A program made the position numbers and the translations under genes. 64,000 nucleotides of DNA, taken from Atractiella rhizophila (lineage: Eukaryota). Position 1 is the first letter of the stretch; each line of letters opens with the position of its first letter. The stretch spans positions 8,473 through 72,472 of the forward strand of contig MU271280.1 of the NCBI GenBank assembly GCA_021432655.1, written 5' to 3'. The notes below the pieces were generated by a model, which was given only the letters and a program-made list of their open reading frames with translations, searched no databases and was not told the DNA's origin. Shown piece after piece: positions 4,559-38,059 of this stretch.

Positions 4559-5617
4559 TATTGTTCCTGCTTGCATGTGTGAGTTTGTTTAACCCTGTTG
4601 TGTCTCCCTTTGTATCATCAGGAAAGAAGTGTCTGGATTGCTGAAACTCCATCACATAAAAGATAGATGGAGTTCCATCTCATCCTACGACAGTTCTCAA
4701 GCTAGCCTGGCATGACCAGGATGAGCATGCGATCGATGTAGAACAGCGCCGCCGCAAGTTAGTCTCGTCAGGACAGTTAACTATTGTATTGTATTTCCAA
4801 ACGACCAAGCCTCTTGTTACTGGATATGTTTTCGGCCGCTGCACTAGGAGCGCTTTGTTCAGCAGCATTTTGCAGTTCCCCTTTCGTTGGATGTGTCGGT
4901 CCAACCTTATTGTAATGTCGGAGTTGGAGCACGGTTCGCGCACCAAGGCGAAGACATCTCCTCCCCAGACTGAACAGTCAATAACGAGAAGACAGTTGAA
5001 GCCCATTTTTATGTGCCTGATTTGTTTCACATTCAGATGCGAGAGTTTGAGCTTGAGCCAGCATTCGCGAAATAATTCTTCCCCAGACTCAAGATGTTTC
5101 TTCCCGTGTTCTCCCGTCCTACTTCGGACTCCAGAGCCTCACTCTGGATTCAATTGATCGATCAATCAACAATCCACCATCATCGACCGGATACTGCTCA
5201 TCGCGGTGGATCGCGTAGCGCTAAGCACCTTCCCCCACACGCCCACATGAGTGCTTATATTGCAACCCCAGTCTTGGCAAAGGTCGTGACGAATGCTTTA
5301 CAGTTTCGTTTTCATCATGCCTTACCCCATAAGAAGCGTATCCTCCTCTTGGTGCGATCGCAGGCTCCCCTGTTCAAGACTCTCAACAGTCTGTCCCGCA
5401 ACATCCCCTTACGGTTCCGTTGCTTTTACTACAGGAGTAAAGTCGAGCGAGCAGGCAAATAATGGTAGACCGCCAAGATTCCTGTGTAAATTCTTAGCTT
5501 CTGACATTATGTCACATTCAAGTTGNNNNNNNNNNNNNNNNNNNNNNNNNGAACGAAAATCTGGAGGAAGAAATAGGAGACTTCAACATCGAAGGAATAG
5601 AAGAAGAAGAACTGAAC

Positions 5618-19392: not shown

Positions 19393-20192
19393 TCAGAAGT
19401 TGGAAGCAAAATAGACACACACTCAGACTCCTCGCCCCTTCTCCTTTTTGACTCGCTAATAGCTGTACCGTCCTCATTGTTCCTCTTCACAAGGTCCACG
19501 GATATTCTGATTCTCTTGCCTAAGATTGACATTTTTGAACAGGTAGGGATGGGTGGCGGTTTAGATAAACTGGGAGAAGCATCGTTGGGCTGCTGAGATT
19601 TATAAGGCTGAAGCTGAAGCTTCAAATTATCAAGTTGGAACAAGTTTGAAGGCAACCCGATGTGCGTACCTTTGATCTGTCCTTGAAACCTGCTGACATC
19701 CATATGAACAGAATCGTATATCGAGTCGTGTCATAAACAGCAACCCAAGAGCACTCGAATCGTGGTCAAACCATCAACTGAAGAAGATTCTTGGCTTTGC
19801 TTGCTTTGCTGCAGGTATCGGAGTCAGTGGCATAAGTACGGTTCCGGTTCGAGAGCCATCCCTAGTTCTTGGCATGAGTCATAAAACGCACTTTTGAGCG
19901 TTCATACCTCCCTCAGCAGGCACGTTAACATAAAACGAATTACACCATCTTATTTCATATGCTTGCGCCTTTCTGAATCTGCAAGGAAATTTTATTCTGC
20001 AGAGGTCAAAAAAATATGTTTCATACTGGACTCGAACCCTTTCAAGTATCACACCAGGGTTCAAGGGGTCATGCCACTTGCGAGTGGGTTGGGGGCCTCA
20101 GGGACGAAGGCTGATGACACACTTGCAACGATTAACGGACAAAACACTTGCAACCAGCGTTAAATTGCACTACCCCGCTTCGAGAATTACGA

Positions 20193-22779
20193 ATGACCAT
20201 GGCGGCGCTCTCTGAACTGATCTACGTTGTTACTGGAGTTAATGCAGGGGGAGAAGAGATTTATGTTGGTCCAACAGCAACCAATGTCGCGTCGATACGA
20301 TTGATATCCGAACTAAGACGACATCTGGAGCGTGACATCAACATCTCTTCACTCACCCTTCCAAGAGACAGTGCAGAAGCTTGCCGACTGAGGCTCTGGA
20401 AGGTGAAAAAGCTACCAGTTACTGCCGGGGAAGAAACCATGCAGCTGGTCCAATCCATCCAATTTTTCTGGAACCGTGATGGAAAGGATATCGCTGAACC
20501 GCCCAAGACAGATTTACCGTTGGAGTTGGACTTTCTTCCACAATTCCACAACCTCAGCTCTTATTGGCCAAATCAGCCCAACATGTCTGAATTGCATGTT
20601 ATCGCTGAAGTTCTACCATTCCTTGACCCTTATCCAGATGGTATGTTTGTTTCCTCATCATTTCACGGACCGCCCCTGACGAATTTCACAGTGGCAGATT
20701 CAAGTGCATGGCTGCAGACGCATACGGATGGAATCTTCCAATTGGCACGATTCAAGGTTGAATCTAAGGCGTCTTTCCCTAGTCTCGTGGATAGCTTGGA
20801 TCTGTTGGAGAAGAACAAAATCCACAATCGCCCCTCCCAAGCGCTACTCGACGCTAAAACTCAACTAGCCAAATTTTTCAATATGCCTTCCGAGTCGAAA
20901 CGAGAAGAACTGAATGGGCTCTTTGAATACGCAGAGCATCTTAAGGCAAATTTTGGTCGAAATGTCGACGCTTCAGACCGGACAGTGAAAGCGGGAGAGC
21001 TGAGTCATTACGCCGCCGTCCTTGAACATGGCTGTCACAGTTCATGCCGCCAGCGCTTTTCACAGAAGAAAAAATTCTACGCTTGCTCGAAATATCTGGA
21101 TCCAGTGGCGATTGGTCTATCACAAGGGATGCAGGGGTGGAGTTTTCACTAGTAAGCTAGATCGCTTGGTTGCTTGGTTGAAGTTGACGGTTGCATTCAG
21201 CGACGAAGATTGGCCGTTTTATTTATTACCTTGGGTGAAACATCGCCATAAGCCCTTGGTCCAGTTCAAATATCTCCCGCGGAGCGATGGCGCCTTTCGT
21301 GACCAGTCAAACACCCCACGACTTCTTGTTGAGGTTCAGTCAGATCCATCTCGATCGGACGAAACCAGAATGCTGCTCCAAGGCGCCACCCTCGTCAGAC
21401 TAGCCCAGGACGTCATCAACTCGGCTGAAGAGACCAAGAACGAACCGTGGCGATTCGTTTTGATTTGTTGTTATGTGACAAACGAACTGATGGTTAAACG
21501 ATATTTGATGTGTTGTGAGGATATGCAAAATCCTAGCGTGCGCAGATTTAGTCGCTCTTTAGAAGTACTCTAAGGGTTTTTCAGGAAAAAGTTGTCTATC
21601 AACATGACGCATTCGATCTCCAAGAGCCAGCCGGAGTGTTCAAGTTCCTCCTTGAGCTATACAACTTCCCCGACATCATGAAACCAATCGACCCCTTCAA
21701 TATTCTAACAAATTTAGAGCGTGCGGTAGTAAAGCCACTCCGATCGTTTTATTCCACTGGTCGCACCAAGAGCGGAAAGCGGAAAGCGACGGACGAGGAC
21801 AAAGGTGACCAGTCACATGGCAGAGCGGCAAAGTCTCAGAGGCTGAATATCCCCGCAGTCACGAAGGCTCTTCTAGATGCAGGTTACTCGATAGTCCGGC
21901 TTGATGCCAGCGGTTGGACCATAGTTGATGAGGTCCGTGCTCTCCAGCTGGATCCTTTCCGCACTGACCACAATACTCCAGACACCATCAATATCTTACC
22001 CGTCAGTAGCAACGGTTTGTCGACGAGACGGGAAGCGGTTCATTGTCAAGATCGTCGAAAGTCCAGAGTTCGAAGAAACAGCGATCCACCGTTCACTGGC
22101 GCGAATCGACGACCGAAGGAACCATACGATAAAGATTGTCGAAGTTTTGGAGTGTGAAGGCGACCAACTCCTCATTCTTCCACTCGGAGTTCCCCTATGC
22201 GATCTCAGCTTCAAACTTGGAAATCGTTTCAACAGCACTCTTGCGATCTCTCTCTGTCACCAACTCATCGATGGTGTTGGATTTATGCATAGTCAAGGCT
22301 TTGCGCACCTGGATCTGAAGCCCGATAACCTTGTTGTCATTGACAAGACTCTCCACATTATTGATTTTGGATTGTCTCGTCGAGTGGCCCCAGATACGAC
22401 ATTGAAAGGCTTCCGAGGGACGAAGACGTGGGTTGCCCCAGAAGTCGGGGAAAATGATGGACCGAAACAGACATATGAAGCTATCCCTGTCGATTTATGG
22501 GCGACCGGCACCATTATCCTTCGTTTCTTTGGTCTATATCTCCCGGACAATCATCAACTTTTGGATATCGCAAGACAATTAACCGCACATGATCCAAAGT
22601 CTCGACCACGCCTGGATGGAATGAATCGAAGCCATAAAAGGAGGAGTCTTGAGCTGGATGTCCCTATTAGTAAACACAGGTTTGTTCATTCTCTTTGCAA
22701 TGTTTGCCCTGAACTTAATTTCGTTTATAGCAGAAAAGACTACCTGGAGCAGTCACCCCGTCCATTGCCAGTTTGTTGA
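20193..22779 (+). CDS. Crinkler/CR-effector-like protein: N-terminal CRN (Ubl-like) header, PD-(D/E)xK REase-like domain, C-terminal protein kinase
   Basis: ISELR...A.RLRLWKV...LSSYW...LHVIAEV header; PRSDGAF...PRLLVEVQS; kinase IVK, HLDLKPDN, DFG, GT..WVAPE, DLW; joined through GT-AG introns. Confidence 0.7.
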
Positions 22780-23959
22780 GTTGAATCTGAGAAGTTTTCG
22801 GTGTACCATAGTCTGTTTTATAAGTGATTGAAGCCATGTCATACTATCTATGCAGGACTGGTTTAGCTTACCTCTCTTTCTGAATCAATAGGACAATTGT
22901 GGATTTTCGCCAGTTCCTAATAAATTGCGTTCTGCCTCTATCCCTGCTCCCCTTCAAAGTTCGCCTGCAACCTGATAATCAATTTGGATTTGTAGGTCGT
23001 AATATTGGACAATATGCAACCACAAAGGCTGTCCCCTTCGCACCTGGTTCGGCCATCCTGTTCAGTATTGGCAGAATGAGCCTTAGGCTTTAGCTTCAAA
23101 GCGTCACCCCAGTCAAGACGGCAGTCGCCTGCTGGTATGGAATCTGACCACAAACCGTGACCAATGTTTAGCGGCCACAAGAATGATGGGTTCGACGCTG
23201 TTTGTGAGATGTTCGCTTTAGGACTACTGTTGGGAACGGACCTTCCTGACGCAAGTGCGGAGCATTGTTGTAAATGTTTTTTTGACTGAGGGACTGGACT
23301 GGCTTGTCATTTGGGAGTAACTTGTCTTCTGAAGCACAGGTAGCCTCGCATTCGTATCGCGAGATCAGTTATGTTGATGTTATAGATGATGTTGGATGTG
23401 CTTGTGCTTTGGCTCCGTCCATATCCCAAATGGATTTGCAGTGGGGCATACATTCTAAGGTGCAATTGAGAAGAGGACTGCAAGTGATGTTATTGTTGAT
23501 TCGTGTCGTTCTTGTATGCCGGGAATAATAATTGCCTCAGCTTTCACACACTCTATATACTTTTAAAGACGTTGCTAGTAAAATCAAGAAAGAGTAAGAT
23601 AGTAAGAAAACAGAAAAAGCGTATCAAATGAGACAGAATTAGGTGAGGTGAAAGCGCGAGACCGCGACATGCACGCTCACAAACAAAAGCGTTCTGATAC
23701 AGAGATGTGTTGGGCAAAATTCACTCAGCTGCGAATGCAGGACTGTATATACCCATGCGGAATTCTTGGTGGTCCACCGGACGTCAGAAGTGAAGCGTCA
23801 GAGTCGAGAGATTAACTCAAACACTGGCACCATCTGGAGCGGGACGAGGTAGAAAATCTCAGCTCAGAACAGACCCACATGATTGGTTATTCTCAATATC
23901 TAAACCCAGACTGCCTCAAGGGTACATCCAACTTGCCCACCAACCAATTCGGGGGTTTC

Positions 23960-24412
23960 AAGTCACTCGCCATCCTCGATACTCCAAACAAGATCCCGAA
24001 CACTGTCTCAGCATAAACCGTTCCCATCCATCCAGTCTCCTCCTCCTTCCACCAGACGTGAGGATGCGGATGCCCGCCGTGGCGTCGTAGACTCCGACGA
24101 GGGTGGCAGTCGTGTAGAGGGATATGGAGGCGAGAGGATATCGGCGTATGGCGTGAGAGACGTAGGTGTATGACATGAGGGAGGACATTCCGAGCTCGAG
24201 TGGGAGGGTTCTATGGCTATAGATGTGATGCAGGGCGAAAGGAATGAGACCGTAACCTGTCAGCGCGTGCAAGGACATCCTTGGAAGATAACTCCACAAA
24301 CTCACAAACTCCTCCTCTCCATCCCCTCCTCTCCTTCCTCGTCCTCCTCAAAAGCCTTCGCCTTCTTCATCTGTCTCCTCCTCTGCCTGTATATCGCCAA
24401 CAGCCTCTTGAT
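23960..24412 (-). pseudogene. 3' fragment of an MCP1/DUF1691-like membrane protein
   Basis: IKRLLAIYR...SLHALTGYGLIPFALHHIYSHRTLP...MSYTYVSHAIRRYPLASISLY...VGVYDATAG; no N-terminal half present. Confidence 0.6.
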
Positions 24413-24774
24413 CTGTGAGCCACACCCAGCCTTGGGCCATGTCAAAAGGCCCATGAGTAGCGAGCCAGCTGCGAGCGATAGGTGAGTGTCGCTTTTGTCC
24501 GATCAATCGTTGAAGCAGCTTACAACGAGAGAACGAAAACATTCCAGCCGTCCAGCGCTGATGCAGCCGGGGGTGCTCCTACATCATGAAGTTCAGAGGA
24601 ACCATGTCGCTCAAATCAATCCATATTACCTTGGTTCGCCCACTTGTCTGAGTACAAGACAAAATGAGGCGGATTCTGCGCGAGTGTCGAAACCGTCTGG
24701 TTTGTAATTGGAAGAGAGAGAGCCCCATGCAGAAGAGAGCCTGCAAGCGTGAGAAGAGCGAGAAGAGCGGCCAT
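24407..24774 (-). pseudogene. GH18 chitinase 5' fragment fused to the MCP1-like fragment
   Basis: MAALLALLTLAG signal peptide, PHFVLYSDKW, APPAASALDGWNVFVLS, WLATHGPFDMAQGWVWLTDQ; chitinase similarity then stops. Confidence 0.8.
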
Positions 24775-25828
24775 TTCGCAACGAGGCAGCTAGCTAACTA
24801 GAGAAAGAAGAGGGTTGGAGGCACCTACATAAATACCATCCTTTGCTCCCCACCTCCATCGTGATGTGGAGGTCTTCATGCTGCAGTCTGAGAAAGCACA
24901 CCATGCTCTGACTGAAAACTTGTAGGAGCACAAGTTAGCACAAGGCATGAAAGGGGTCGGCTAGCCATCACATCTCGCCGACCATTTTGGTCGATATTAT
25001 CCACTGTTCCTTGCAAAGGCCAAGCTCAGGTTAGACCAGAATTGGGAAAGGAAGAGATTGTTGAGAAAGTTGAAGGAATTACAATTGAAGAAGGAGAGCA
25101 GGAAGCGAGCTAGACTGGAAAAGTTTAGTATATGCCACTAAGGTAACGACCCCACTGTTTCAAGGAGTCGTTCATAATTGTACATCCCTCAGTTACTCGT
25201 GATTTTAAATTTACCACATCACTTTTTGGCTGGCCCTGGAGAAGTGACTTGACAGTAGAGTATTAACCCATCGGAACTAGCTCTCGCCACATGATTGTAC
25301 CATAGTTCACAACGCGTGTGCTGACGCTAAGATGTGGTACATGGTCATGTCGTGGGGATGATGGGGGCGATAACGTAGGAAACACACGCGGGATAGAGAA
25401 ACCGATGATTGAGGCACTTTTGTGAGAAGAATTGCAAGGTTTAGCAACAGTGGATAATATCGACCAAAATGGTCGGCGAGATGTGATGGCTAGCCGACCC
25501 CTTTCATGCCTTGTGCTAACTTGTGCTCCTACAAGTTTTCAGTCAGAGCATGGTGTGCTTTCTCAGACTGCAGCATGAAGACCTCCACATCACGATGGAG
25601 GTGGGGAGCAAAGGATGGTATTTATGTAGGTGTCTCCAACCCTCTTCTTTCTCTAGTTAGCTAACTGTCTCGTTGCGAAATGGCCGCTCTTCTCGCTCTT
25701 CTCACGCTTGCAGGCTCTCTCCTGCATGGGACTCTCTCCCTTCCAATTACAAACCAGACGGTTTCGACGCTCGCACAGAATCCGCCTCATTTTGTCTTGT
25801 ACTCGGACAAGTGGGTGAATCAAGGTAA
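24626..25828. repeat. Long inverted repeat: arms ~24626-25008 and ~25446-25828, spacer ~440 bp
   Basis: cgccgaccattttggtcgatattatccactgtt vs aacagtggataatatcgaccaaaatggtcggcg; near identity extends through the promoter and exon 1 of both chitinases. Confidence 0.95.
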
Positions 25829-25995
25829 GTGCTGGCATGCGTGGTGATGGCTTATCTGGACTTCGTGGCGTAGGCGCACCGCCCGCTGCCTCAGCTCTGG
25901 ATGGCTGGAATGTCTTCGTACTCTCTTTGTATGCTAGTTCACTGTTTCACTTGATCAAAGTGGCGCTCACCTTACATTTCTTGTAGTTGGCTGGC
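25680..25995 (+). CDS. GH18 chitinase, 5' exons (continues inside the reversed segment)
   Basis: MAALLALLTLAGSLLHG...PHFVLYSDKWVNQ / APPAASALDGWNVFVLSF / WLA, breaking off at 25995. Confidence 0.9.
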
Positions 25996-26579
25996 ACGTC
26001 TCTCACAAATGACTATATAGCTACTCGTAACCGAATAAGGTGTCCTCAAACTTTTTCCCTCATGATATATTTTATATCTTTCAGTGTAAGGAAGGCTACG
26101 GTATAAAGAAACAACGGAAGATTCAGGGTTGTGCGAAAGAGACGTGATGGAACACTAGAACAAAGAAATTGCTTTTTACACCCTGGCCTTCTGTAAGCCG
26201 TCGTTCCTTTGTTCCGTGTTGTTACGTCATCGAACTTATAGAAAAAGGTTGATAACTGGTCCACGACACACGCGTGACCCTACGTGTTTTTCGCATATTT
26301 CCGCCATTCAGTGTTTGAAATGTAGGGACACGACTTTTCGGGAGACAAGGCGGAAGGGAGAAGGAAGAGGAAACATAGGGGGGCGGCTGGAGGGGGAGAG
26401 GGAAATTTCAGCCGCAGTCGTGGATCCTATAAGTTCAACGGTCAACGGTCATCCTCAGCCCGCCATGCCAAACAAGAGGGACGGGCTCTGTAAGTGAAAC
26501 TTAAGAGTGGAGGAGGATTGCGGTTCGGAGTCTTTGTTATCATAGTATCTACGACAGAGACAAGTTATTGTTGTATGAA

Positions 26580-27978
26580 GACGGAAGAGCTTAGGCCCTT
26601 TACAGCTGTAGAGGGGGCTACTTGTAAGGGTTCTCCTGCTTCTCGCGAGTCACAGTCAATGAGATGCGCAACGCGTTGACACCCGTGGTGAGGCTGGGTT
26701 AGGAGAAGGAAATGTTAATTCCCTCTTCTCTAACAAAGAGTAAATGCTTCTGTAAAGGCGAAAGGTAAAGCTGAAACCAGCTTAAAAACGCCGTCCCCGC
26801 TCGTCGATAACGGTGTATCGCTGCCTCTTGTCGTACAGCTTAGATAGCGAAGAAGAAGCAGCAGGACGAGGACAGTACCGGTAATTCCAGACAGGATTCC
26901 TCTTTTAAGCTCTGCGTGCTAAGTAGTCTCTGCTTAAGGCCTGTGAGGAGACGTAGCCGTTAAGGCCTAGCGTAGGGAACTAACGTGCTGGAAAACCCCG
27001 AAAAGTCCTAATAAGGTTACGGAAAAAGCACAGTCTTAAACACTTACCTCCTCTTGAGAAAGCTGAGTACCTAGTTGTGACCGTTCTTAAGGTTTTGGGC
27101 CTGAAGCGAGCGAAAATGGACCGACTCTAACAACGACAGTGACTTACCAATGTAAGTTCCCCCTAATAGGTAGCGCTATAGTTCGGGCTTTTACAAGAGT
27201 AACGGCGACTACCGGTGTAATTCGAGCATCTAAAACCCTTTCGATGCGTGTAGATGGCTCCCGTCTTTTAACTTAACCTAACACGAAAACCCTGACAACT
27301 TATGTACAGAGGACTTGAGCGGTTGTGCGTAAACCTTGAAGTTCGGAACCTAACCCTGTAGGTCGCTATGCACTAGTTCCTAATGGGAAGTTGCCGACGT
27401 CTAACCACCCGCCAAACCTTGGTACCGCAAACTCTACCGTAAGAGGGTGGCTGGAAAGTAAGGGTTCAAGCAGATATAACTTAACGAGTACAGAATAACT
27501 ACGTAACGTCCAGAAAGCCACCTTCACTTCCAACGTAACGCCGATAGCGCGCGCCCTAGGCCACGGTATGGGCGCGCTTGGAGCTTTTAGAATAAGGCCT
27601 ACGCACAAAGTCCTGTAAATAGGTTAGGGATGAGCAATTTCTGGGGAAAGACGCAGAAAGAAGAGGGTTGGTTCTCAGACGTTGACGTGTGGGGAAGAAG
27701 GCACCAAACCTAACCCGACGACAACAACCCTTTTGTGGAGCTCGGTGGATAGTTGCAGCGGCCATCCGAAGCGAACCTTCTCTTCCTATGCTGAAACAAA
27801 CTGTTACCAGGCCTAATACTTCTTTACCCGTCTCCGTAACATAAACCTCTCGAGCACCTATACCGAATACCGCGACCACTTCTATACTAGCCGCTTCTCA
27901 TGCTCACGCGCAAAGTATATAGGCAGCTGCCCGTTGCAATTGGTAATAAATACATTGTCACTGTAGAAACCTTTAATT
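26580..27978 (-). CDS. AGC-family (PKA-like) Ser/Thr kinase; readable only as the complement left-to-right (minus strand once the segment is un-reversed); start uncertain
   Basis: MAIKVCPKEK, AFQDYSNAFFVSEFVNGGELF, ARFYLAEI, IIHRDIKPENVL, HIKLVDFG, GTVEYMSPE, DWWAV, LLVKDPFLRL, HPFFRGLDW, ends DDIFGN*; two +1 homopolymer slips (~27415, ~27733). Confidence 0.9.
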
Positions 27979-28192
27979 TGCTGGAGCTTTACTTTCCTCC
28001 TTCCTTCTTCATAACAAAACATTAAATTACTAGCAGAAGGTTAGTAAGCGCAGATCGAACTTCTATAGCTGGACCACTATGTAAAACAAGTAAACGTGCA
28101 ATGTTTGTAAGACGGAAACAAATTACTGAAGGCTTCCTTTTCAGCAAGGAACACAGCATTTAAACAAAGGAGGGTTCTTTGGGAAACTAACT

Positions 28193-29389
28193 AGTAGGGG
28201 TTTGACAAAAGTGCATAGGTTGATAACAAATTAGTGCAGTCCTTGCCTTCCGACTTTCACTTACGCCGTATGGACCAACTAGTCGATCTTTACTTCCAGT
28301 CGTGCGTGACGTCCCTCCTCTGCTCTTTTCTTGAATGCTATAACGGTTTGGTAGTTAGGCCGCCGATTGGCTACGACTACATATTTATAGAGAATGAAAC
28401 CTGCCTTAAATCTGAGTGTTATAGGTCTCCGAAACCGAAGTCGTTGCGTCGGAAAGTTATGCCGTCCGCTGTGTATTGGTCTCGACCGTGATGGCCACAA
28501 GCGTCCAAAGGGGTCTTGATTCGGAAAGTAATTCGTTGAGAAGCTGGTCTTTGGTTGCCTGGATGGGTCAAATAAATCTAGATAGGGGGCTCGTCGGTAG
28601 AGCTTTTAGCTTCATGCACCAAGTTATCGTCGTGATCACACATTCTCTCTCAACGTACAACATATTAGCCATGGGACTAACATCTTGACCTACAACAGAA
28701 ACGTTGAAGTAGTCTTGTATACGCCCTTCCTTGCTTCCTCTGAATGTGGTTAGTTACTCTGACGGGTGGAGGACTACATAGGAACATATTGGTGGAGGCC
28801 CCATTTGCTTAAAGGACCTTAAGATACTGTAGCGAGATCCCCACTGTCCGTACTGCTTGGGAGGACTTCCTAGAAACAACAGGCACTTGGTACCCCGACC
28901 CTTTTCGATCATTCTGTTCGGTCAAAAGCCCGCTCTAGTGAAGCGAGTGGTTGACCCCGCACCCACTATTACATTGACGAAGGCTCGACCAAAGCTTCGA
29001 GAGCTCACTTACACTAGTTGGTTCGAAGACGCCATGGAGGTAAGTACCGTGACATTTGGTACCATTTGCTACTGTTGTAAGTACCGAATTTATTTTCGAG
29101 TGAGCTTCAGAAGCATCAGTTACAGCTGTGGTACTTGAAACATAACGAAGCGTTTCAATCGGTTTAAAGATCGTCATCACTGTCCTAGTTCAGGTCTTGA
29201 CCACCCTGCTAGGCAACGTGGAATCGTTCGTTAACAGTCGTTTTCTCCAGTGTCTCTTCACTCTCATTGGTTGGCTTCCGTCGCTGCTACTAAAATCGTG
29301 GCTGTCGTAGCATGACGCGAGACTACAGACACGCAACGACTAGGCACTCGGTATGGGTTGGAACGTGGTATAGTATGCCAGGGTCTCAA
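28193..29389 (+). CDS. GH18 chitinase, 3' exons; readable only by reading the given bases right-to-left
   Basis: TLGPYDMVQGWVWLTDQQR, IIVAAFGATD, HGVDIDYED (catalytic DxDxE), ITHAPVAPWF, IDWYNIQFYNQG, EMAARGIDLNKL, GYVKTVWG*; collinear with the paralog at 32846-33329. Confidence 0.93.
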
Positions 29390-31238
29390 NNNNNNNNNNN
29401 NNNNNNNNNNNNNNGTATTCTGGTCGCACTTGGGCTTCCCTTCCTACCCGTATCGTGTTTCCACACTTCCTCCAGGTATAAAGATACTTACTACACGAGC
29501 CAACGGTTCTTTGCTCCCTCACGCCCCGGTTTCTGGTCGTCACAGAAAGGGGAGGACAGAGGTGACAGAGGGGGGTGAGGATTGATGTAGGACTAGTCCT
29601 ACACTTTGTGTCACCCTCCTAGCTATATCTCCTCCTCCACTTCACCTTCCAGCGGTTCTTATGCCGTCCGTCGCTCCTGACCATCGCAAATGGACCCCAG
29701 ACCATGATAGGAGCGCGGGGTAGTGAGACAGAAGGGGCAGACAGGCGACAGGGATACCAGACGACTTCAGTGCAGCCACCGATGTGCCGTCCGTGCCCCT
29801 CACCATCTCATATCATCGTCCCAGGCCCATCCGGCACCTCCTTCTCACCTTCCGACTTCTCTCGCCATCCAAGGATCCCCTTCCAACGCCGCACGCCTCT
29901 TCGCATTGAAACTGACAGTGAGCTGGGGCACAAAAGTCTGGTTGCCGAAGAAGTGAGAGGATATGAACCACAACAGGGTTGGAGGAGTACCGATTCTAAG
30001 ATACCGTTGTGACAATGTTAGTTTACCTGAACGAGAAGAAAAGGCACCTCTTTCCGCAAACAGCGAGTCTGTCTCGAAGCTTATTTTTCTCATTCTCCTC
30101 TGAATACATCTCAGATCCAACAAAAGAGCACCAATGAATGGCGTCGATGTTCTACGCCAAAACGTTGTTCACCAACTTTGTCTAAATGACTGGCAACAAT
30201 TGAACAACATGAGGAGCTTACTTTGAGAAGTGCATGCTTGCCGCAACATGTATTTCACTCATGTGGATTGATTTTGGGCGACGACGTGGCAGAGGAGACG
30301 AAGAAAGAGAAAAGCGGTGTTGTGAGAAGCAATGAAAGGGGAGATGTTGATGATGATGGCAGGATGTTAAGAGCGAGGGAGAGTTCGAACTTGTGAACGT
30401 TGGGGTGTTGGGGTGGGCGTCTCCATTCTGCTCCGTTGTCCAGTTGGTTGTGGCACTTAGTCCTCTTCAGAGTCTTCACGTGATGTGGATTGCCTTGGAA
30501 CTTTGCCAAGTTCGTTGCGCTCACCGGCTCTTCTCTTTGTTGGCTCGTTTCCACTTCAATACCGCTTCAGTTCTCAAGCAATAGGTTTTAAATGCTCGGG
30601 AAGCTGTATTTGCTATATTTAACCCCTTCTAGCACCGAAGGAAGGAATCACAGAATAAGAGATCCTTTCTGATTTCAAGAACTGAAGAACTGTTTAGTCC
30701 TGTTTTGTTATAGTCCTCTGGGTCTTCTCTATTTTGGATGGTCCTTAAAGCCCCTTAGCCAGCCCCTCAGCCGATCTTAAACAATCGCAGGTTTGCCTGT
30801 AGTTTGCCTTAGTTTGCTCACAAGGAGAACCAGCTGTAACATTTGCACTACAGCCGCACTAACTGCTCTAAGCCTTCCCTATCTCAACACTAACCCAGCC
30901 CTGCAAGGTTCCAGGGTATCACCACCCACAACAGCTCTTTCAGAATCCTGAGCGTACGAACAGAATACCCGTGTCGGCGCCTTTCAAACCGTATACAACA
31001 AAGCTATTTAAAAGACAAAAATACTGGTCTCCATGACCGAGTCAGGTGACTTCTCCCTGAGGGGACCGCTCAGCTTGTAACATAAGATCGAACAGATCTT
31101 GTAAAGACACATTTTCTCTCGCTACAATGATGTGGACATAACTTGCACATCCTGCTCCTTATATCTCTATGCAAGGCCAAAATTCTGAGTAAGAGAAATG
31201 ATACATGGTGCCTCACACGCAAACTCCAATATGACCTA

Positions 31239-32381
31239 GCCAGACCACCCCCCCTTTTTCGGAATCGTCGTGCAAGTATCGGGTGTGGAGAGAATGGTAC
31301 GTTCACGTTTGTTCCCTTTAGCCACCCTTTCACAGTTACTCCTCTCTTTGCATATAACATGTACCATTCTCCCGTTCTTCAGCGCGATTATGTCAGGTTT
31401 GCATCTTACGCAAATCGGCGCCCTTTCGCTGGATTGCATCTCCTATCGCCCATTTGCATTCCCTGGGAATCGGCGCCTGTCGCCACTCTGCGTCTCCCAT
31501 TGCCTGATTTTGCCCATTTGCACCTGCATCACCACTTAGCCCATTTGTGTCTATTCTCCTCTTATTAACTCCGCATAATCCCACTGTCACTTTTCCCTTT
31601 TAGTTCTCTTACATGTTTCATCTGCTCTCCTCTACACCGTGTGGCAGTGTTATTCCGCTTGTAATATATAGATCGGAGAGTAGTGGAGGTGGACCTCAGA
31701 GTATTCTCTTAGGTTTATCTCCACTACAGGTTAGTCTTCACGTCGTACCATGCTCTTAGGTTTACCTCCACTACAGACGCATCGCCTATCGGCGACCGCA
31801 CATAGTGTCAGCCCTAACACACCGACGCTTACAATCATCTTTGAATCGCTGCCAAAGAAATACCAAACTACATTACATAAGGAATGTTTCCGCATATCCC
31901 AGAAAACTAACAAACCATGTTGGCTGAAATGCAGTCCCAAACCTGTCAAAACCATTGGCGACGCCTCAAAATGGCTGGGGGGCATTCGCAACCACTGTGC
32001 AATGTGTCACCTACGGTTTCGAAAAGAGATGCCAATTGTTCCCAACCACCACTCAGGTTGCAGGACCATTCTCAAGGTTGGGCTATGAGACAATCATTGT
32101 GTGAGGGATGTTGGAGATCCGTGGATGTCACTTGTTTGTTCTATTTACATTGCGTTCCGGATGCCGTGCCAAACATGTGCACTTCACCGCTAGTCCGGAC
32201 TTATAAGTATGCTTGATGTGTTTTCTTTCCTTTTCTTTCTCCCCAATCACATATTCGTTTATATCATTTGCACTCACTAATAAGTGATTGGGGATTGTTA
32301 GCGCAAAGTGATAGAAAGTACATTTCTCACTAGGGATGGCTATGATTGCAGGATGGTGCTGAAAAAAGGGGGTGGTCTAGC
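31239..32381. mobile_element. Non-autonomous TIR element (MITE-like, possible TA TSD) carrying a solo LTR
   Basis: ta|gccagaccaccccccctttttc at the left and gaaaaaagggggtggtctagc|ta at the right are imperfect inverted repeats. Confidence 0.55.
31391..31819 (+). repeat. Solo LTR, family A
   Basis: TGTCAGGTTTGCATC...GTCAGCCCTAACA. Confidence 0.85.
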
Positions 32382-32845
32382 TAGGGACTTGTTGCTCACG
32401 AATCCGTTTGAGCAGCATGTCTAGGTCAAGGAATGTACGCACCATCCCCCATATAGGCGGTATTGTATATACCGGCTCCATCACAGCGTCGAAGATGTAT
32501 ATGTCCTTCCAAGCTCTCTTGATCTTGAGCTCCATGCGCAACATTGGGAATCACCTGACGCGCCGCCCAAGGGGTCATGGTTAACCACTCCATCTTCTCC
32601 CTCAATGGACGTTCCTTTGACCAGCAACAGTGATCTTGCCCGCCAATATGAATATACCTTCATATGCCATAAAGGGACGTTCCTTAAATGATTGTCACCA
32701 TATAACACCGTTCGACTAGAAGTATACATTTTTCTTCCATGTTACAAAATATTCTGACATTGCGCAAAGATTGCGCAAAGATTGCTCAAAGGAAAGTCAT
32801 TGCTCGGTCGTAGATTCTTCCTCTTCCAAGCTGCACTTGGATGCC

Positions 32846-33329
32846 TTATCCCCAAACGGTGTTCACGTATCCGACTGTTGATTATCGCATTAGCAGCGCA
32901 AGTTGGGCACAGATGTAGATGAGACTGACCAGGTTGATCGGCTGCGAAGAAAAGTCAGCGTCAAGCAGGTACAAGGAAAGGACAGAACTTACGATATTGC
33001 CAAACCATTAATCCGGCGGCTATCCAATGTGAATGCGTAAACATAGCTCGAGAGGATGGAGCAGAGCGCACAATATCCAGATGCTTTGGCTTCAGCAACG
33101 CAGCCGCTCAATACGTCCGGTGATACGTAGCCCGAGCTCGCACTCCCGGTGCTCGCAGGTTTGCCCAAAACTGTGTTTCGTTTATCAGTAACTATTCGAG
33201 ATGGAAAAGGAAGCTGTACCAAGCTTATTCAGATCTATTCCCCGAGCAGCCATCTCGAATATCGAAGTGTGTGGTTCAATAGCAGCGCTGGTATGTAACA
33301 GGGAGTCGCAGGTTGTGTAATCGGTGCCA
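32846..33329 (-). pseudogene. GH18 chitinase 3' fragment truncated by an LTR
   Basis: GTDYTTCDSLLHTSAAIEPHTSIFEMAARGIDLNKL / VLGKPASTGSASSGYV / GLMVWQY / GYVNTVWG*. Confidence 0.85.
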
Positions 33330-33606
33330 CCATTTGTGTCTATTCTCCTCTTATTAACTCCGCATAATCCCACTGTCACTTTTCCCTTTTAGTTCTCTTA
33401 CATGTTTCATCTGCTCTCCTCTACACCGTGTGGCAGTGTTATTCCGCTTGTATATATAGATCGGAGAGTAGTGGAGGTGACCTCAGAGTATTCTCTTAGG
33501 TTTATCTCCACTACAGGTTAGTCTTCACGTCGTATCATGCTCTTAGGTTTATCTCCACTACAGACGCATCGCCTATCGGCGACCGCACATAGTGTCAGCC
33601 CTAACA
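33330..33606 (+). repeat. 5'-truncated family A LTR
   Basis: Near-identical to 31541-31819. Confidence 0.85.
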
Positions 33607-33999
33607 CACCGACGGTTACCATCACAAGGCTGCCAAAGAATTAGCAAACTACATTACATAAGGAATGTGAAGAGAAAACTGACAAACCATGTTGCTTCAA
33701 GCAGTCCCAGACTCAAATACGCCTCAACCATGGCTGTCAGGCTTGCCCCTACGCATTACCGAAATGCACCATCTGAAGTCACGTGACCTACTTTACCATG
33801 CCATAGTATCATGCGCCTACCCATCGCCGCTTTGCTCACGTTCGCGCTGATCGCCGCCTTCCCCTATCTCACACGAATCGCCGCTCAGCAAACCTTAAAC
33901 ATTTCGCCGGTCTGCACCATCTCCATTATTGCTTTATTGTCCTTTCTCATTTGTACTGCTCAGTATGTCTTATTTCCGAGTTTTCCCTTTATTTCTTTC

Positions 34000-34500
34000 C
34001 TGATCTAGCTATCTTACATGTTTCAAGAAACGTATGATACAGTTGATGGCAGTGCTTTTACATATGTATATATACATCGAGATGTAGTGGTGGTGACCTC
34101 AGAGTATTCTCTTAGGTTTACCTCCACTACAGGTTAGTCTCCTCATGCCATACTATTCTCTTAGGTTTACCTCCACTGCAGACGCATCGCCTATCGGCGA
34201 CCGCACATAGTGTCAGCCCTAACAATGGCCTTGCAATCATCTTTGAATCGTTGCAGCAATACCAAAAGATAGTTGTAATGTTTCCGCATTTCCCAGTGTT
34301 CTAGCAACAGTTGGGAAATGCAGTCCCAACCCTGTCAAAACCATTGGCGACGCCTCAAAATGCGGGGGGCATTCGCAACCACTGTGCAATGTGTCACCTA
34401 CAGTTTCGAAAAGAGATGCCAATTGTTCCCAACCACCACTCAGGTTGCAGGACCATTCTCAAGGTTGGGCTATGAGACAATCATTGTGTGAGGGATGATT
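34000..34500 (+). repeat. Diverged family A LTR 3' end (to 34224) plus a copy of 31830-32105
   Basis: ctcttaggtttacctccactacagg...gtcagccctaaca, then gtcaaaaccattggcgacgcctcaaaatg...gagacaatcattgtgtgagggatg shared with 31945-32110. Confidence 0.8.
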
Positions 34501-35539
34501 CCACATCAGAGGACAGCTCGGAGTACGCGTAGAGGAGCACCTCGGTAGCGAAAGGAATGTCCATGTTGGAGATGCAAGGACGGGAGAGGCCAGGGTCTAC
34601 AAGGCGAGGGAGAAGAGGGAGAGAGAGTTGGCAGAGGAGGAGAGGATGGTCGGAGGAGATAGATAAGGAGGACTGATGAATGAGTGAAAGTGAGTGGACA
34701 GGAGTTGAAGGCGAAGTGAAGATGTGATCGAGGGGATTAAGGAGAGCGGGATGAGTAGACTGAGGAGAAGAGACAAACAGCTGACGCATTGCCATCCAAG
34801 TGACGATGCAGGAAACCCTATCAGAGGGGGTTAAGCCTGAAGGCGATGCATCTTTAGGATGTGGGATGATATTAAATACTGAATGAACAAGGGCTTTCTG
34901 GAATGGAACTAGCCTTGTCTGCATCCATCGACGAACACTCTGCATCTCTCATCTCTCTCTCCCCTCTCACGCTGTCAGGGAGAGCAACCTGGTTCCTGGA
35001 TTTTGCGCGTCGAGTGTCAAGTGCCACCAGTTGGTTGTTGCTACACGATCGGTCAAAGAAAGTCTCGTATGTGATCTTTATTGACTCTTGCCTTGTCGAC
35101 GATGAGATGAGAGATGTGTTCTCTCTTGCCAATTCGATATTCAAGTTGTGCAGCTTTCATATCTCCATTGTCTCAAACTCAAACACATATCCACAACTGC
35201 AATTCTTAGGCAAGAGATCTTGGTTCATCGTGACATCTTTCTTGTTCCTAGGGTTCGTTCATCGGTCTCGCAATTTGACAAATGGTTCAAGTTGCCCTAA
35301 GTTGACCTCCCCTTCTTATCCTCACGTCCTCACGTTCGTAAGGATGTTCTTCCATGCGTGTAGATCTTTGGATCAGAATGCTGCTCTGCTGTATTCCTTG
35401 TTTTTTCTTGCTCTTCTTCAGAGTCAGTTTCACGTATCCTTTCGTCGCTCTGCCTCCTCGTAGCTCTAGTCCAGATCTGACCTATTTCCTCAGTTTCGTA
35501 TCTCACGTTCATAACCGATTTCATCTCGTGCTCTAGGAG

Positions 35540-36204
35540 ATGGACGCCTCGGCCTTCGGAAAGACGCCTAAGCCTTCTTCATCAAATCCCAGCGACAATG
35601 AAGACCCTGGGAATTTATCTGATGACGACAACGAATTCACCGCCGGTTCGCGACAAGTTCCACCGTCTAATGAAGGCGTCAGAGTCCAAAATCTTTCAGT
35701 ACTGCAGCTGTACTCTCAAACCAGCCGTTTCTTGACCACCAAACCGACAATTTTTGGCCCACAGTTTGGCTTCCTATCGCGTATCGCATCGCCGGTTGCC
35801 CCCAGAACTGCAACTCCAACACCTTCCTTATACCCCAGCCCCTCCCAAGTTCAAGCCGTCAAGATTTTCAAAGTCCCCGAGAATGTCAAGAAGACGAACG
35901 AGCAAGGCATCCGAATCCTTGCTATTGACAATGGCGGCATTTGTACCTTTTCCACGCTTTATATGCTTGAAGTCATCATGCTCCAAGTTGGAGATCTCCT
36001 CGGCGTTCCGGAAGGAGAAGAGGTTCGACCCTGCGATGTTTTCGATCTCATCTGTGGCACTTCTACAGGAGGATGGATTGCCCTCATGCTCGGAAGATTG
36101 GGAATGACCGTTCGAGAATGCATCCGTGCGTACGAACAGATCGTGCAGCAAGTCTTCTCCGAAGAAACTCCAATCTCAAAAGGAGGCTGCGTGTACTCTG
36201 CGGA
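35540..36204 (+). CDS. Patatin-like phospholipase domain protein, 5' part (runs into the gap)
   Basis: GIRILAIDNGG oxyanion loop, RPCDVFDLICGTSTGGWIALMLGRL (GxSxG). Confidence 0.85.
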
Positions 36205-36229
36205 NNNNNNNNNNNNNNNNNNNNNNNNN

Positions 36230-36649
36230 AACCATGATTTTAGCTCCAACAGCATCGTACTGAGCTCTGAAGTCTGCACGTTGTTGATCCGTGAGCCACA
36301 CCCAGCCTTGGACCATGTCAAAAAGGTCCTTGAGTAGCGAGCCAGCTGCGAGCGATAGGTGAGTGTTGCTTTTCTCCGATCAATCGTTGAAGCAGCTTAC
36401 AACGAGAGAACGAAAACATTCCAGCCGTCCAGCGCTGATGCAGCCGGGGGTGCTCCTACATCACGAAGTTCAGAGAAACCATCGTCACTCAAATCAATCC
36501 TTACCTTGGTTCGCCCACTTGTCAGAGTACAGGACGAAATGAGGCGGGTTCTGGGCTAGAGTAGAAACCGTCTGATTCGTGATGGGCATGGAGAAGACTC
36601 CATGAAAGAGAGAGCCTGCGAACGTTAGAAGGGCGAGAAGAGCAGCCAT
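36230..36649 (-). CDS. GH18 chitinase, 5' part (runs into the gap; one homopolymer slip)
   Basis: MAALLALLTFAG...PHFVLYSDKWANQ / APPAASALDGWNVFVLS / WLATQGPF-DMVQGWVWLTDQQRADFRAQYDAVGAKIMV. Confidence 0.85.
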
Positions 36650-38059
36650 TTCGATCGTGCGATAAGCGAAGCAAAGAGACAGCCCGTTGAGGGAAAGGTA
36701 AGGTATTTGGAGCACTTAAATATTCACAGTCACCTATCCCCCTCCCCATGGTGATGTGGAGGGACCCGCCGTCATCACAGCAAGTACATCATTTCTCTCA
36801 CTGAAATTCGGTAGGAGCACAAGACATGAAAGGGGATCGTCAAGCTACCACATTCCGGCGACCATTTTAGTCGATACTATCTAGGATTACATGCTATTCA
36901 TCCTGAACCTTCTAATTATCGTCTAAACCAGCATCAATCAGGGTTGCTCCATTCCGCCCTGTTTATCCTGATCCTGGGGGTTATCTTCCCCACGACCTCA
37001 TAGTGCATCACAGCTTAGCGTAACCACGCGCGTTGAGACCTGTGGACAATCACGTGGTGAGGGAACCTAGTGCCCGACGCCACAGCACACACACTTGTCA
37101 CTTCTCTGAGGCTGCAAAGATTGCTTGAGGCTCGAGAGGCTGCGACGATAAATATAAAGCATCAGTGATAGGTAACGCACAAGCTTGTTTGTGTATAACT
37201 CGTGTATAACTCCTTGAAACTGTGGGGTGAATTGCTGGCACGTACATTTGAGTTATTAAACAGTGCGTAAGATGTATAATTATACACTGAGCGGGCTGAA
37301 GAACCGAATTGAAGGCGGCGAGTTGCAAGGCAGTAAAATGGAGGGAATAGTAGAACGTGGCTGCGCATTCATTATATGCATACAGAGCGTTTAACAGATT
37401 AAAATTTGTGGATATCGTTTAATATTCAAAAAACATCGCTGATATGCGGTATATAAAAGAGGCAGAGCAGTGTTAGAAGTTGGAAGTGAGGGCAATGGTT
37501 AACTCCTGCTTACGACTGGGTTATTCCCGTTGTTGGTAAGACTGAGGCTTGAACAACATAAGGAGGTGCATAATCTTTGACCATGGTTCTTCGTGGTATC
37601 AAGCAGTTATCGACGCTGTTTCAAATCATCGTCGCCTCATGGATCGAAAGGTAGGCAAGTTTACTGTCAACCCTTCAAAGCAAGACGCCAGCAGGCGCCA
37701 ACTAATAGTGGTTCTTGCTCCTGCGTACCTCATCTTCAGGGTCATTACTTTGCAGTGAAAGAAACATGCAGAGTTGACTATAGAAAGGTTCAAGTCCACA
37801 TGACAATTGTTGGCACAGACTTTGCTCTCACAGTCGTTTACACTTCCCCAACTCAGGAAACGCACCAATTATCCCTAATAATGGTATAACATAAAATTGA
37901 ATCCTGCTGTTCTCCCAAGCTCTCTATAATCCTGGATGTCCACTCGAAACTCGAACAATAATCAACCCTTGTGGATTGGTCTGCCTTGTCGGATCCGCAT
38001 TTCCGCCCTAACGACGAAACTTCATCACAACTTCTTTGACCACCTCAGCCGCCGCAGTG

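Follow-up and report, generated by a model that had tools for sequence, protein, structure and literature searches.

The question raised by this locus is why a stretch of sequence beside an assembly gap yields homology, open frames, and splice signals only if its letters are read in the opposite order without a change of strand, and what the DNA of the organism looks like at that place. The stretch lies in contig MU271280.1 of Atractiella rhizophila (GenBank assembly GCA_021432655.1), of which 64,000 nucleotides, referred to here as the window, were analyzed. An earlier note on this DNA had claimed that positions 25996-29389 are reversed without being complemented, that they conceal most of a chitinase gene as well as an AGC kinase gene, and that a gap-filling or software error is the most likely cause. 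The reversal itself, with its exact coordinates, is confirmed by three lines of evidence, namely composition, homology, and the junction: the 3394 nt of 25996-29389 are a letter-for-letter mirror image of normal genomic sequence, assignable as written to neither strand, whose true order runs from 29389 to 25996 after base 25995. As had also been claimed, the block ends exactly at a gap, its last base, 29389, being directly followed by a run of 25 N (29390-29414).

The compositional evidence was obtained with a k-mer orientation score, defined as log f(x)/f(reverse x), for which strand-symmetric counts were trained outside the block. At k = 3 the block scores -130, whereas the 270 other windows of 3394 nt have a minimum of +52.6, a mean of 109, and a standard deviation of 25, placing the block approximately 9 sd under the background mean. 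Expressed per base, the mean score is -0.038 within the block versus +0.032 elsewhere, which fits a mirror image. For k from 2 to 5, negative sums are confined to four of the 64 1-kb bins, the four from 26 to 29 kb, and tiles of 400 nt have a negative score in eight of eight cases in the block versus 6% of the background. The block has a GC content of 0.47 and a coding content; its TA/AT ratio, which had been proposed as a mark of the artefact, is 1.58, as opposed to 0.67 in the remainder of the window, and the flip extends to all six reversible dinucleotide ratios. The window contains three further runs of exactly 25 N, beginning at 5526, 6435, and 36205, and a scan of their six flanks with the orientation score found each of them normal. 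The maximal reversed-orientation segment by k-mer score extended to 29661, and a second short reversed extension to the right of the gap (29415-29660, with a borderline score of z -2.4 over 200 nt) was considered as a candidate; it was rejected because contigs cover the bin 29015-29615 in its written form and because the stretch is of low complexity.

Homology comparisons lead to the same coordinates. As written, the block contains no long open frame related to anything, and it gave no blastn match and no six-frame tblastn match to the rest of the window on either strand. After reversal, blastn against the rest of the window aligned the block to 33328-32789 (553 nt, 74%, E 5.6e-84) and to 36335-36231 (105 nt, 84%, E 2.4e-25). 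A biological inversion, which would appear as the reverse complement of the ancestral order, is not what was found, as the minus strand of the written letters had no match in the rest of the window. An external protein of 315 aa, P0001, obtained by way of a correctly written paralog exon in the window and named at its source as a glycoside hydrolase family 18 protein of Atractiella rhizophila, likewise had no match to 25996-29389 as written. In the corrected window, in which the block is un-reversed in place, its residues 63-302 align with an E-value of 1.3e-76, and against the fully reversed window the mirror block was its sole significant match (E 4.8e-74). A mirror self-comparison of the whole window revealed no other mirrored piece, and the mirror matches of the block itself were restricted to diverged paralog pieces. 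That the backward reading frames are a chance resemblance can be given only a vanishing probability, as E-values of 1e-76 to 1e-84 arise after reversal with zero matches before it, and the orientation score stands about 9 sd under the background mean.

A comparison with the mirror repeats of H-DNA is also appropriate, since in both cases a sequence is the same-strand reversal of another one. Mirror repeats of that type are short, low-complexity, homopurine/homopyrimidine sequences with both arms side by side, whereas the present block consists of 3.4 kb of unique coding sequence without a forward arm. When the block was examined for such a structure, none was found, its mirror matches being only paralog pieces of 74-84% identity located 4-7 kb away.

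The left edge of the block can be tested against two other copies of the 5' region of the gene that crosses it. In the corrected text, single blastn alignments pass through 25995/25996 unbroken against both copies, with corrected 25443-26046 aligning to 25011-24409 at 87% over 608 nt and corrected 25283-26100 aligning to 37061-36231 at 70.6%; at the join, zero bases are missing and zero are added. The first of these copies, at 24409-25011 on the minus strand, is a partial duplicate of the promoter and exons 1-3 in head-to-head arrangement. The second belongs to the paralog to which P0001 corresponds and which is present in two pieces on the minus strand, a 5' piece (aa 1-105) at 36230-36649 that abuts the 25-N gap at 36205-36229, and a 3' piece (aa 223-315) at 32849-33334, to which the un-reversed block aligns at 74%. 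The left contig end, 25995, falls in sequence that is present as three nearby copies.

The gene recovered across this junction is a secreted GH18-type gene. Its 5' part is written correctly on the plus strand (25680-25995) and comprises exon 1 (25680-25824), which begins MAALLALL..., exon 2 (25874-25928), and the first 9 nt of exon 3 (25987-25995), with both introns of the GT-AG type. Exons 3-12, located by a P0001-guided splice search, occupy 28193-29389, belong to neither strand as written, and are readable only backwards. In written coordinates, from high to low, exons 3-7 lie at 29389-29274, 29220-29103, 29050-28950, 28896-28860, and 28814-28747, and exons 8-12 at 28697-28566, 28517-28419, 28364-28338, 28284-28273, and 28221-28193. 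Reading 25987-25995 and then 29389 downwards gives ...FWLA|TLGPYDMVQGWVWLTDQQ..., followed by ...HGVDIDYE..., so that exon 3 spans 25995/25996 in frame, and the stop codon lies at written 28195-28193. The un-reversed gene has 12 exons, and all 11 introns, of 45-58 nt each, are GT-AG; the nine introns inside the block are GT-AG once un-reversed and GA...TG as written. The coding sequence of 948 nt (315 codons) contains zero frameshifts or indels, while the same exon coordinates translated from the text as written contain 16 stops. Over its full length, the recovered protein is identical to P0001 at 292 of 315 residues, with 63/69 for the part to the left of the junction and 229/246 for the part encoded by the block, and this similar identity on both sides indicates that both belong to the same paralog. 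The proposal of an in-frame chitinase continuation backwards from 29389, with GT-AG introns, HGVDIDYE, and a stop at 28193, is thus borne out as an intact gene.

Regarding the family of the product, P0001 matches Pfam PF00704 with 35.5 bits (cut-off 29.6), and by its 292/315 identity to this profile-matching protein the recovered protein is predicted to be a GH18 (PF00704) member. Pfam searches with the short, correctly written paralog exon fragments reported GH18 in none of six cases, the fragments being too short. The nearest solved chain to P0001 is 6k7z_A, described as 'GH18 chitinase' (E 3.6e-20), and the endo-N-acetylglucosaminidase chain 4ac1 matches as well (E 6.7e-10); judged from these similarities, the substrate of the putative enzyme could be chitin or N-glycan. 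Like small fungal chitinase-like enzymes of GH18, the recovered protein and P0001 carry a D-I-D-Y-E acid motif. The recovered protein differs from the GH18 catalytic acid motif, which we take to be DxxDxDxE, in having His at the first Asp position (HGVDIDYE).

The second gene hidden in the block is a protein kinase gene at 26601-27941, which emerges when the written letters are complemented and read from left to right, equivalent to the minus strand of the true sequence, with a proposed ATG at 26601 and a stop at 27939-27941. This reading contains an open frame of 287 codons (26570-27430) followed by further exonic frames, and a read-through with X at each break amounts to about 433 residues. 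One GT-AG intron of 44 nt (27467-27510) is present, together with two +1 frameshifts, caused by an extra G in a G run at 27412/27413 and an extra A in an A run at 27731-27734; a C may additionally be missing from the C run at 26613-26617. The motifs VMAIK, ARFYLAE, HRDIKPEN, DFG, SPE, DWWA, HPFFRGLDW, PPINV, and DTTLFD occur in this order, and the catalytic motifs that characterize kinases (the VAIK lysine, the HRD...N loop, DFG, and an APE-like motif) are present. Against the kinase open frame that the window itself contains at 21925-22779, used as a reference and matching Pfam PF00069 with an E-value of 3.6e-23, the catalytic loop of the recovered kinase gives a blastp E-value of 1.3e-6. The kinase part of the earlier claim is therefore upheld by the 287-codon frame, the motifs, and the blastp match, and the AGC part is only partly confirmed. 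Six of the motifs (ARFYLAE, HRDIKPEN, DFG, HPFFRGLDW, PPINV, and DTTLFD), which presumably mark AGC kinases, follow one another in the recovered protein as they would in AGC-group Ser/Thr kinases, and on this basis it may be AGC-like. In contrast to AGC-group kinases, no FxxF[ST][FY] hydrophobic motif is visible in its last 60 residues, and additionally its glycine-rich loop is degenerate and its frame is broken twice. In the corrected text, the GH18 gene and the kinase gene stand tail to tail, and about 250 nt separate the two stop codons. The un-reversed block thus returned matches both to GH18 (E 1.3e-76) and to a kinase (E 1.3e-6), and the lack of such matches had been named beforehand as the result that would speak against the reversal.

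Read-derived sequence provides evidence of another kind. Parts of the region are represented in the assembled contigs of three runs, namely the public DNA runs X1 and X2, which come from a single sample, and the run X3 from another organism, and these contigs were placed on positions 20000-38000; X1 and X2 may be the source of the assembly itself and hence are not independent of it, and the evidence of the contigs consists of alignment positions only. One X2 contig of 1912 letters (record 11) places its letters 1-936 on 25061-25996 and then runs on. X1 and X2 each contain a contig (of depth 349 and 252, respectively) that within 87 letters joins 25996 to the opposite strand at 36320, and contigs of matching depths in both runs join 36234 to 33325. 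Letters 2-105 of the un-reversed block align to 36335-36231, and its letters from 716 onward align to 33328 downwards. The contigs and the un-reversed block agree in these two places and in their order and strand; the read-derived sequence therefore departs from the written text at the junction and follows the course of the un-reversed one. Read-derived sequence contradicts the written text at the edge of the block. Reads spanning 25995/25996 as written, which would have spoken for the written text and against an artefact, were not seen in any of the three runs.

Two side observations concern read coverage within the same region. The bins over 26010-29014 have zero cover in all three runs, at a flank word depth of a few hundred, which was not counted as evidence, and the fraction of the words of 21500-31400 that is present amounts to 0.50 in X1 and 0.47 in X2, where the block makes up 34% of that stretch, a figure to be taken as a hint only.

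The contigs also bear on the reading that the mirrored sequence is physically present in the organism as written, which we regard as exceedingly unlikely. Any letter order is chemically possible, and nothing positive speaks for this one; at 25996 the contigs of two DNA runs part from the letters as written and proceed as the un-reversed block would. No process of replication, recombination, or transposition is known to us by which a strand would be reversed and left uncomplemented. If the mirrored copy were real, it would be non-functional and should therefore have decayed, yet the un-reversed block forms part of an intact gene of 315 codons, with nine of nine GT-AG introns. Because no known biological process reverses without complementing and because the gene is intact after un-reversing, the reversal was almost certainly produced in silico, most likely at a gap-extension step, and is not a biological structure. 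The software error suggested by the earlier note is in this respect well supported by the extent from contig end to gap, the lossless join, the intact gene, the homopolymer errors, and the contigs that leave the written text.

The steps by which such a block may have arisen can be outlined as follows. The left contig would have ended at 25995, inside sequence with three nearby copies, and a later step would have extended this end by 3394 nt into the scaffold gap, most likely from a long-read consensus. The extension would have been written reversed and uncomplemented, which is equivalent to a minus-strand consensus that was complemented without being reversed, and the residual gap would have been kept as 25 N. 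As reads would be unable to map to mirrored text, later short-read polishing would presumably have skipped the block, which would consequently have retained one-base homopolymer errors. The DNA in the organism would be ordinary throughout, with a chitinase-type gene of GH18 lying tail to tail with a gene for a protein kinase.

The homopolymer errors on which part of this outline draws deserve separate consideration, as homopolymer insertions had been reported for the block. The claim holds for the kinase, with its two +1 frameshifts, and fails for the chitinase coding sequence, in which there are none. Homopolymer runs of at least 3 number 182 in the block versus 158.7 (sd 12; +1.9 sd), a mild excess, and its 1769 single-base runs are fewer than the minimum of 1781 among 109 other windows. 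With so mild an excess, the run statistics were rejected as proof of a long-read origin, and since the chitinase coding sequence is in addition free of indels, the origin of the block from unpolished long reads is only weakly supported. The frameshifts of the kinase could also be real rather than consensus errors.

Whether the fault occurred in automated gap extension or in another in-silico step, such as a manual edit, a format conversion, or submission, is a further question, and the latter origin is considered improbable. Any use of 'reverse' in place of 'reverse complement' would yield an identical text, and only one of the eight gap flanks in the window is affected, so that the fault is not systematic at the scale of the window. 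The start of the block at 25995/25996 is, on the other hand, unmarked in the text, whereas its end falls exactly at the N run, and its indel errors without counterpart in the flank suggest a piece that was generated separately at the gap. Together with the contig end in three-copy sequence, the end at the 25-N run and these indels argue for a separately made piece added at the gap, and gap extension remains the preferred explanation. In regard to the software, PMC6240028 states that the PBSuite/PBJelly gap filler has a default minimum gap of 25, and the gap size of 25 N points to this program as a lead, not as an identification; other literature on PBJelly, including 10.1101/166231, supplies general context only.

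Among the known faults of assemblies, misoriented contigs and false inversions at gaps are the closest to the present case, in that a piece beside a gap is misdirected, genes at its edge are broken, and the reads conflict with the text where the piece is joined. Ordinary misorientation amounts to reverse complementation, which is possible as real DNA and leaves the genes to be found on the other strand, whereas the mirror block lacks the complement step and neither strand is readable. A literature search judged by titles and abstracts found no printed description of mirrored (reversed, uncomplemented) blocks in assemblies. The locus is biologically ordinary, with one GH18 gene and one kinase gene. 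As the earlier note anticipated, both escape standard annotation, since the block hides most of the chitinase-type gene and the whole kinase gene; in any annotation of this record they are missing or truncated, and the corrected text restores both.

A mirrored block is not repairable by read polishing and is homology-silent on both strands, and such blocks may consequently persist unnoticed in public records. That this block is one case of an undescribed systematic fault of gap extension is conceivable, and we lean against it. Were it true, this assembly would be expected to contain further mirrored blocks beside its gaps, as would other public assemblies that came from its pipeline, each block being invisible to polishing and gene prediction and findable by a k-mer orientation score. 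In the window, this score separated the block from all 270 other windows of its length, and it could be used to screen whole assemblies cheaply.

Comparison of the window with P0001, an external 315-residue protein of Atractiella rhizophila named as glycoside hydrolase family 18 (GH18), revealed that the locus corresponding to this protein (32849-36649) is itself in pieces. Residues 1-105 are matched on the reverse strand at 36649-36230, where the match runs into a 25-N gap (36205-36229), and residues 223-315 are matched on the same strand at 33334-32849, while residues 106-222 have no match anywhere in the window, as written or reversed. The 2.9 kb separating the two pieces contains repeat copies as well as a patatin-like open frame (35537-36204, forward strand), which is truncated by the gap beginning at 36205 and matches the patatin-like phospholipase profile PF01734 (E 1.1e-6) over profile positions 2-67 of 191. 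The break may mean that the assembly went wrong a second time at a 25-N gap, or that the locus is genuinely rearranged. Direct repeat copies at 31541-32110 and 33330-34497 share 97-100% identity, and the summed contig word depth over them reaches approximately 1.15e5, compared with a few hundred in adjacent genes; they look like a high-copy element present on both sides of the GH18 3' fragment.

The assembled contigs of X3, a run of organism B, jump over 20640-20690 (51 nt) and 21931-21979 (49 nt), with few or no other differences, and resemble spliced transcripts, either from the same species or from a very near relative. One X3 contig of 2030 letters is placed on 25191-25625, and a joint from 36234 to 33325 is present in an X3 contig with a depth of 42.7, equal to that of the 2030-letter contig, observations that would fit a transcript derived from the recovered GH18 gene.

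The GH18 promoter and exons 1-3 form an inverted, head-to-head partial duplication (87% over 608 nt by blastn, in the text with the mirror block un-reversed), with arms at 24409-25011 (reverse strand) and 25443-26046 (forward strand, corrected coordinates). Since the 24.4-kb copy departs after ...WVWLTDQ and continues into an acidic tail, it is likely a truncated pseudogene.

To the right of the 29390-29414 gap, the low-complexity, CT-rich stretch 29415-29660 has an orientation score that is marginally negative (z -2.4 across 200 nt), the sign of mirror-like composition; the score was taken as noise because contigs cover this stretch as written. A 284-codon open frame at 21925-22779 (forward strand) contains a PF00069 protein kinase domain (E 3.6e-23) and is related to the hidden kinase, the second gene of the mirror block, at the family level only.
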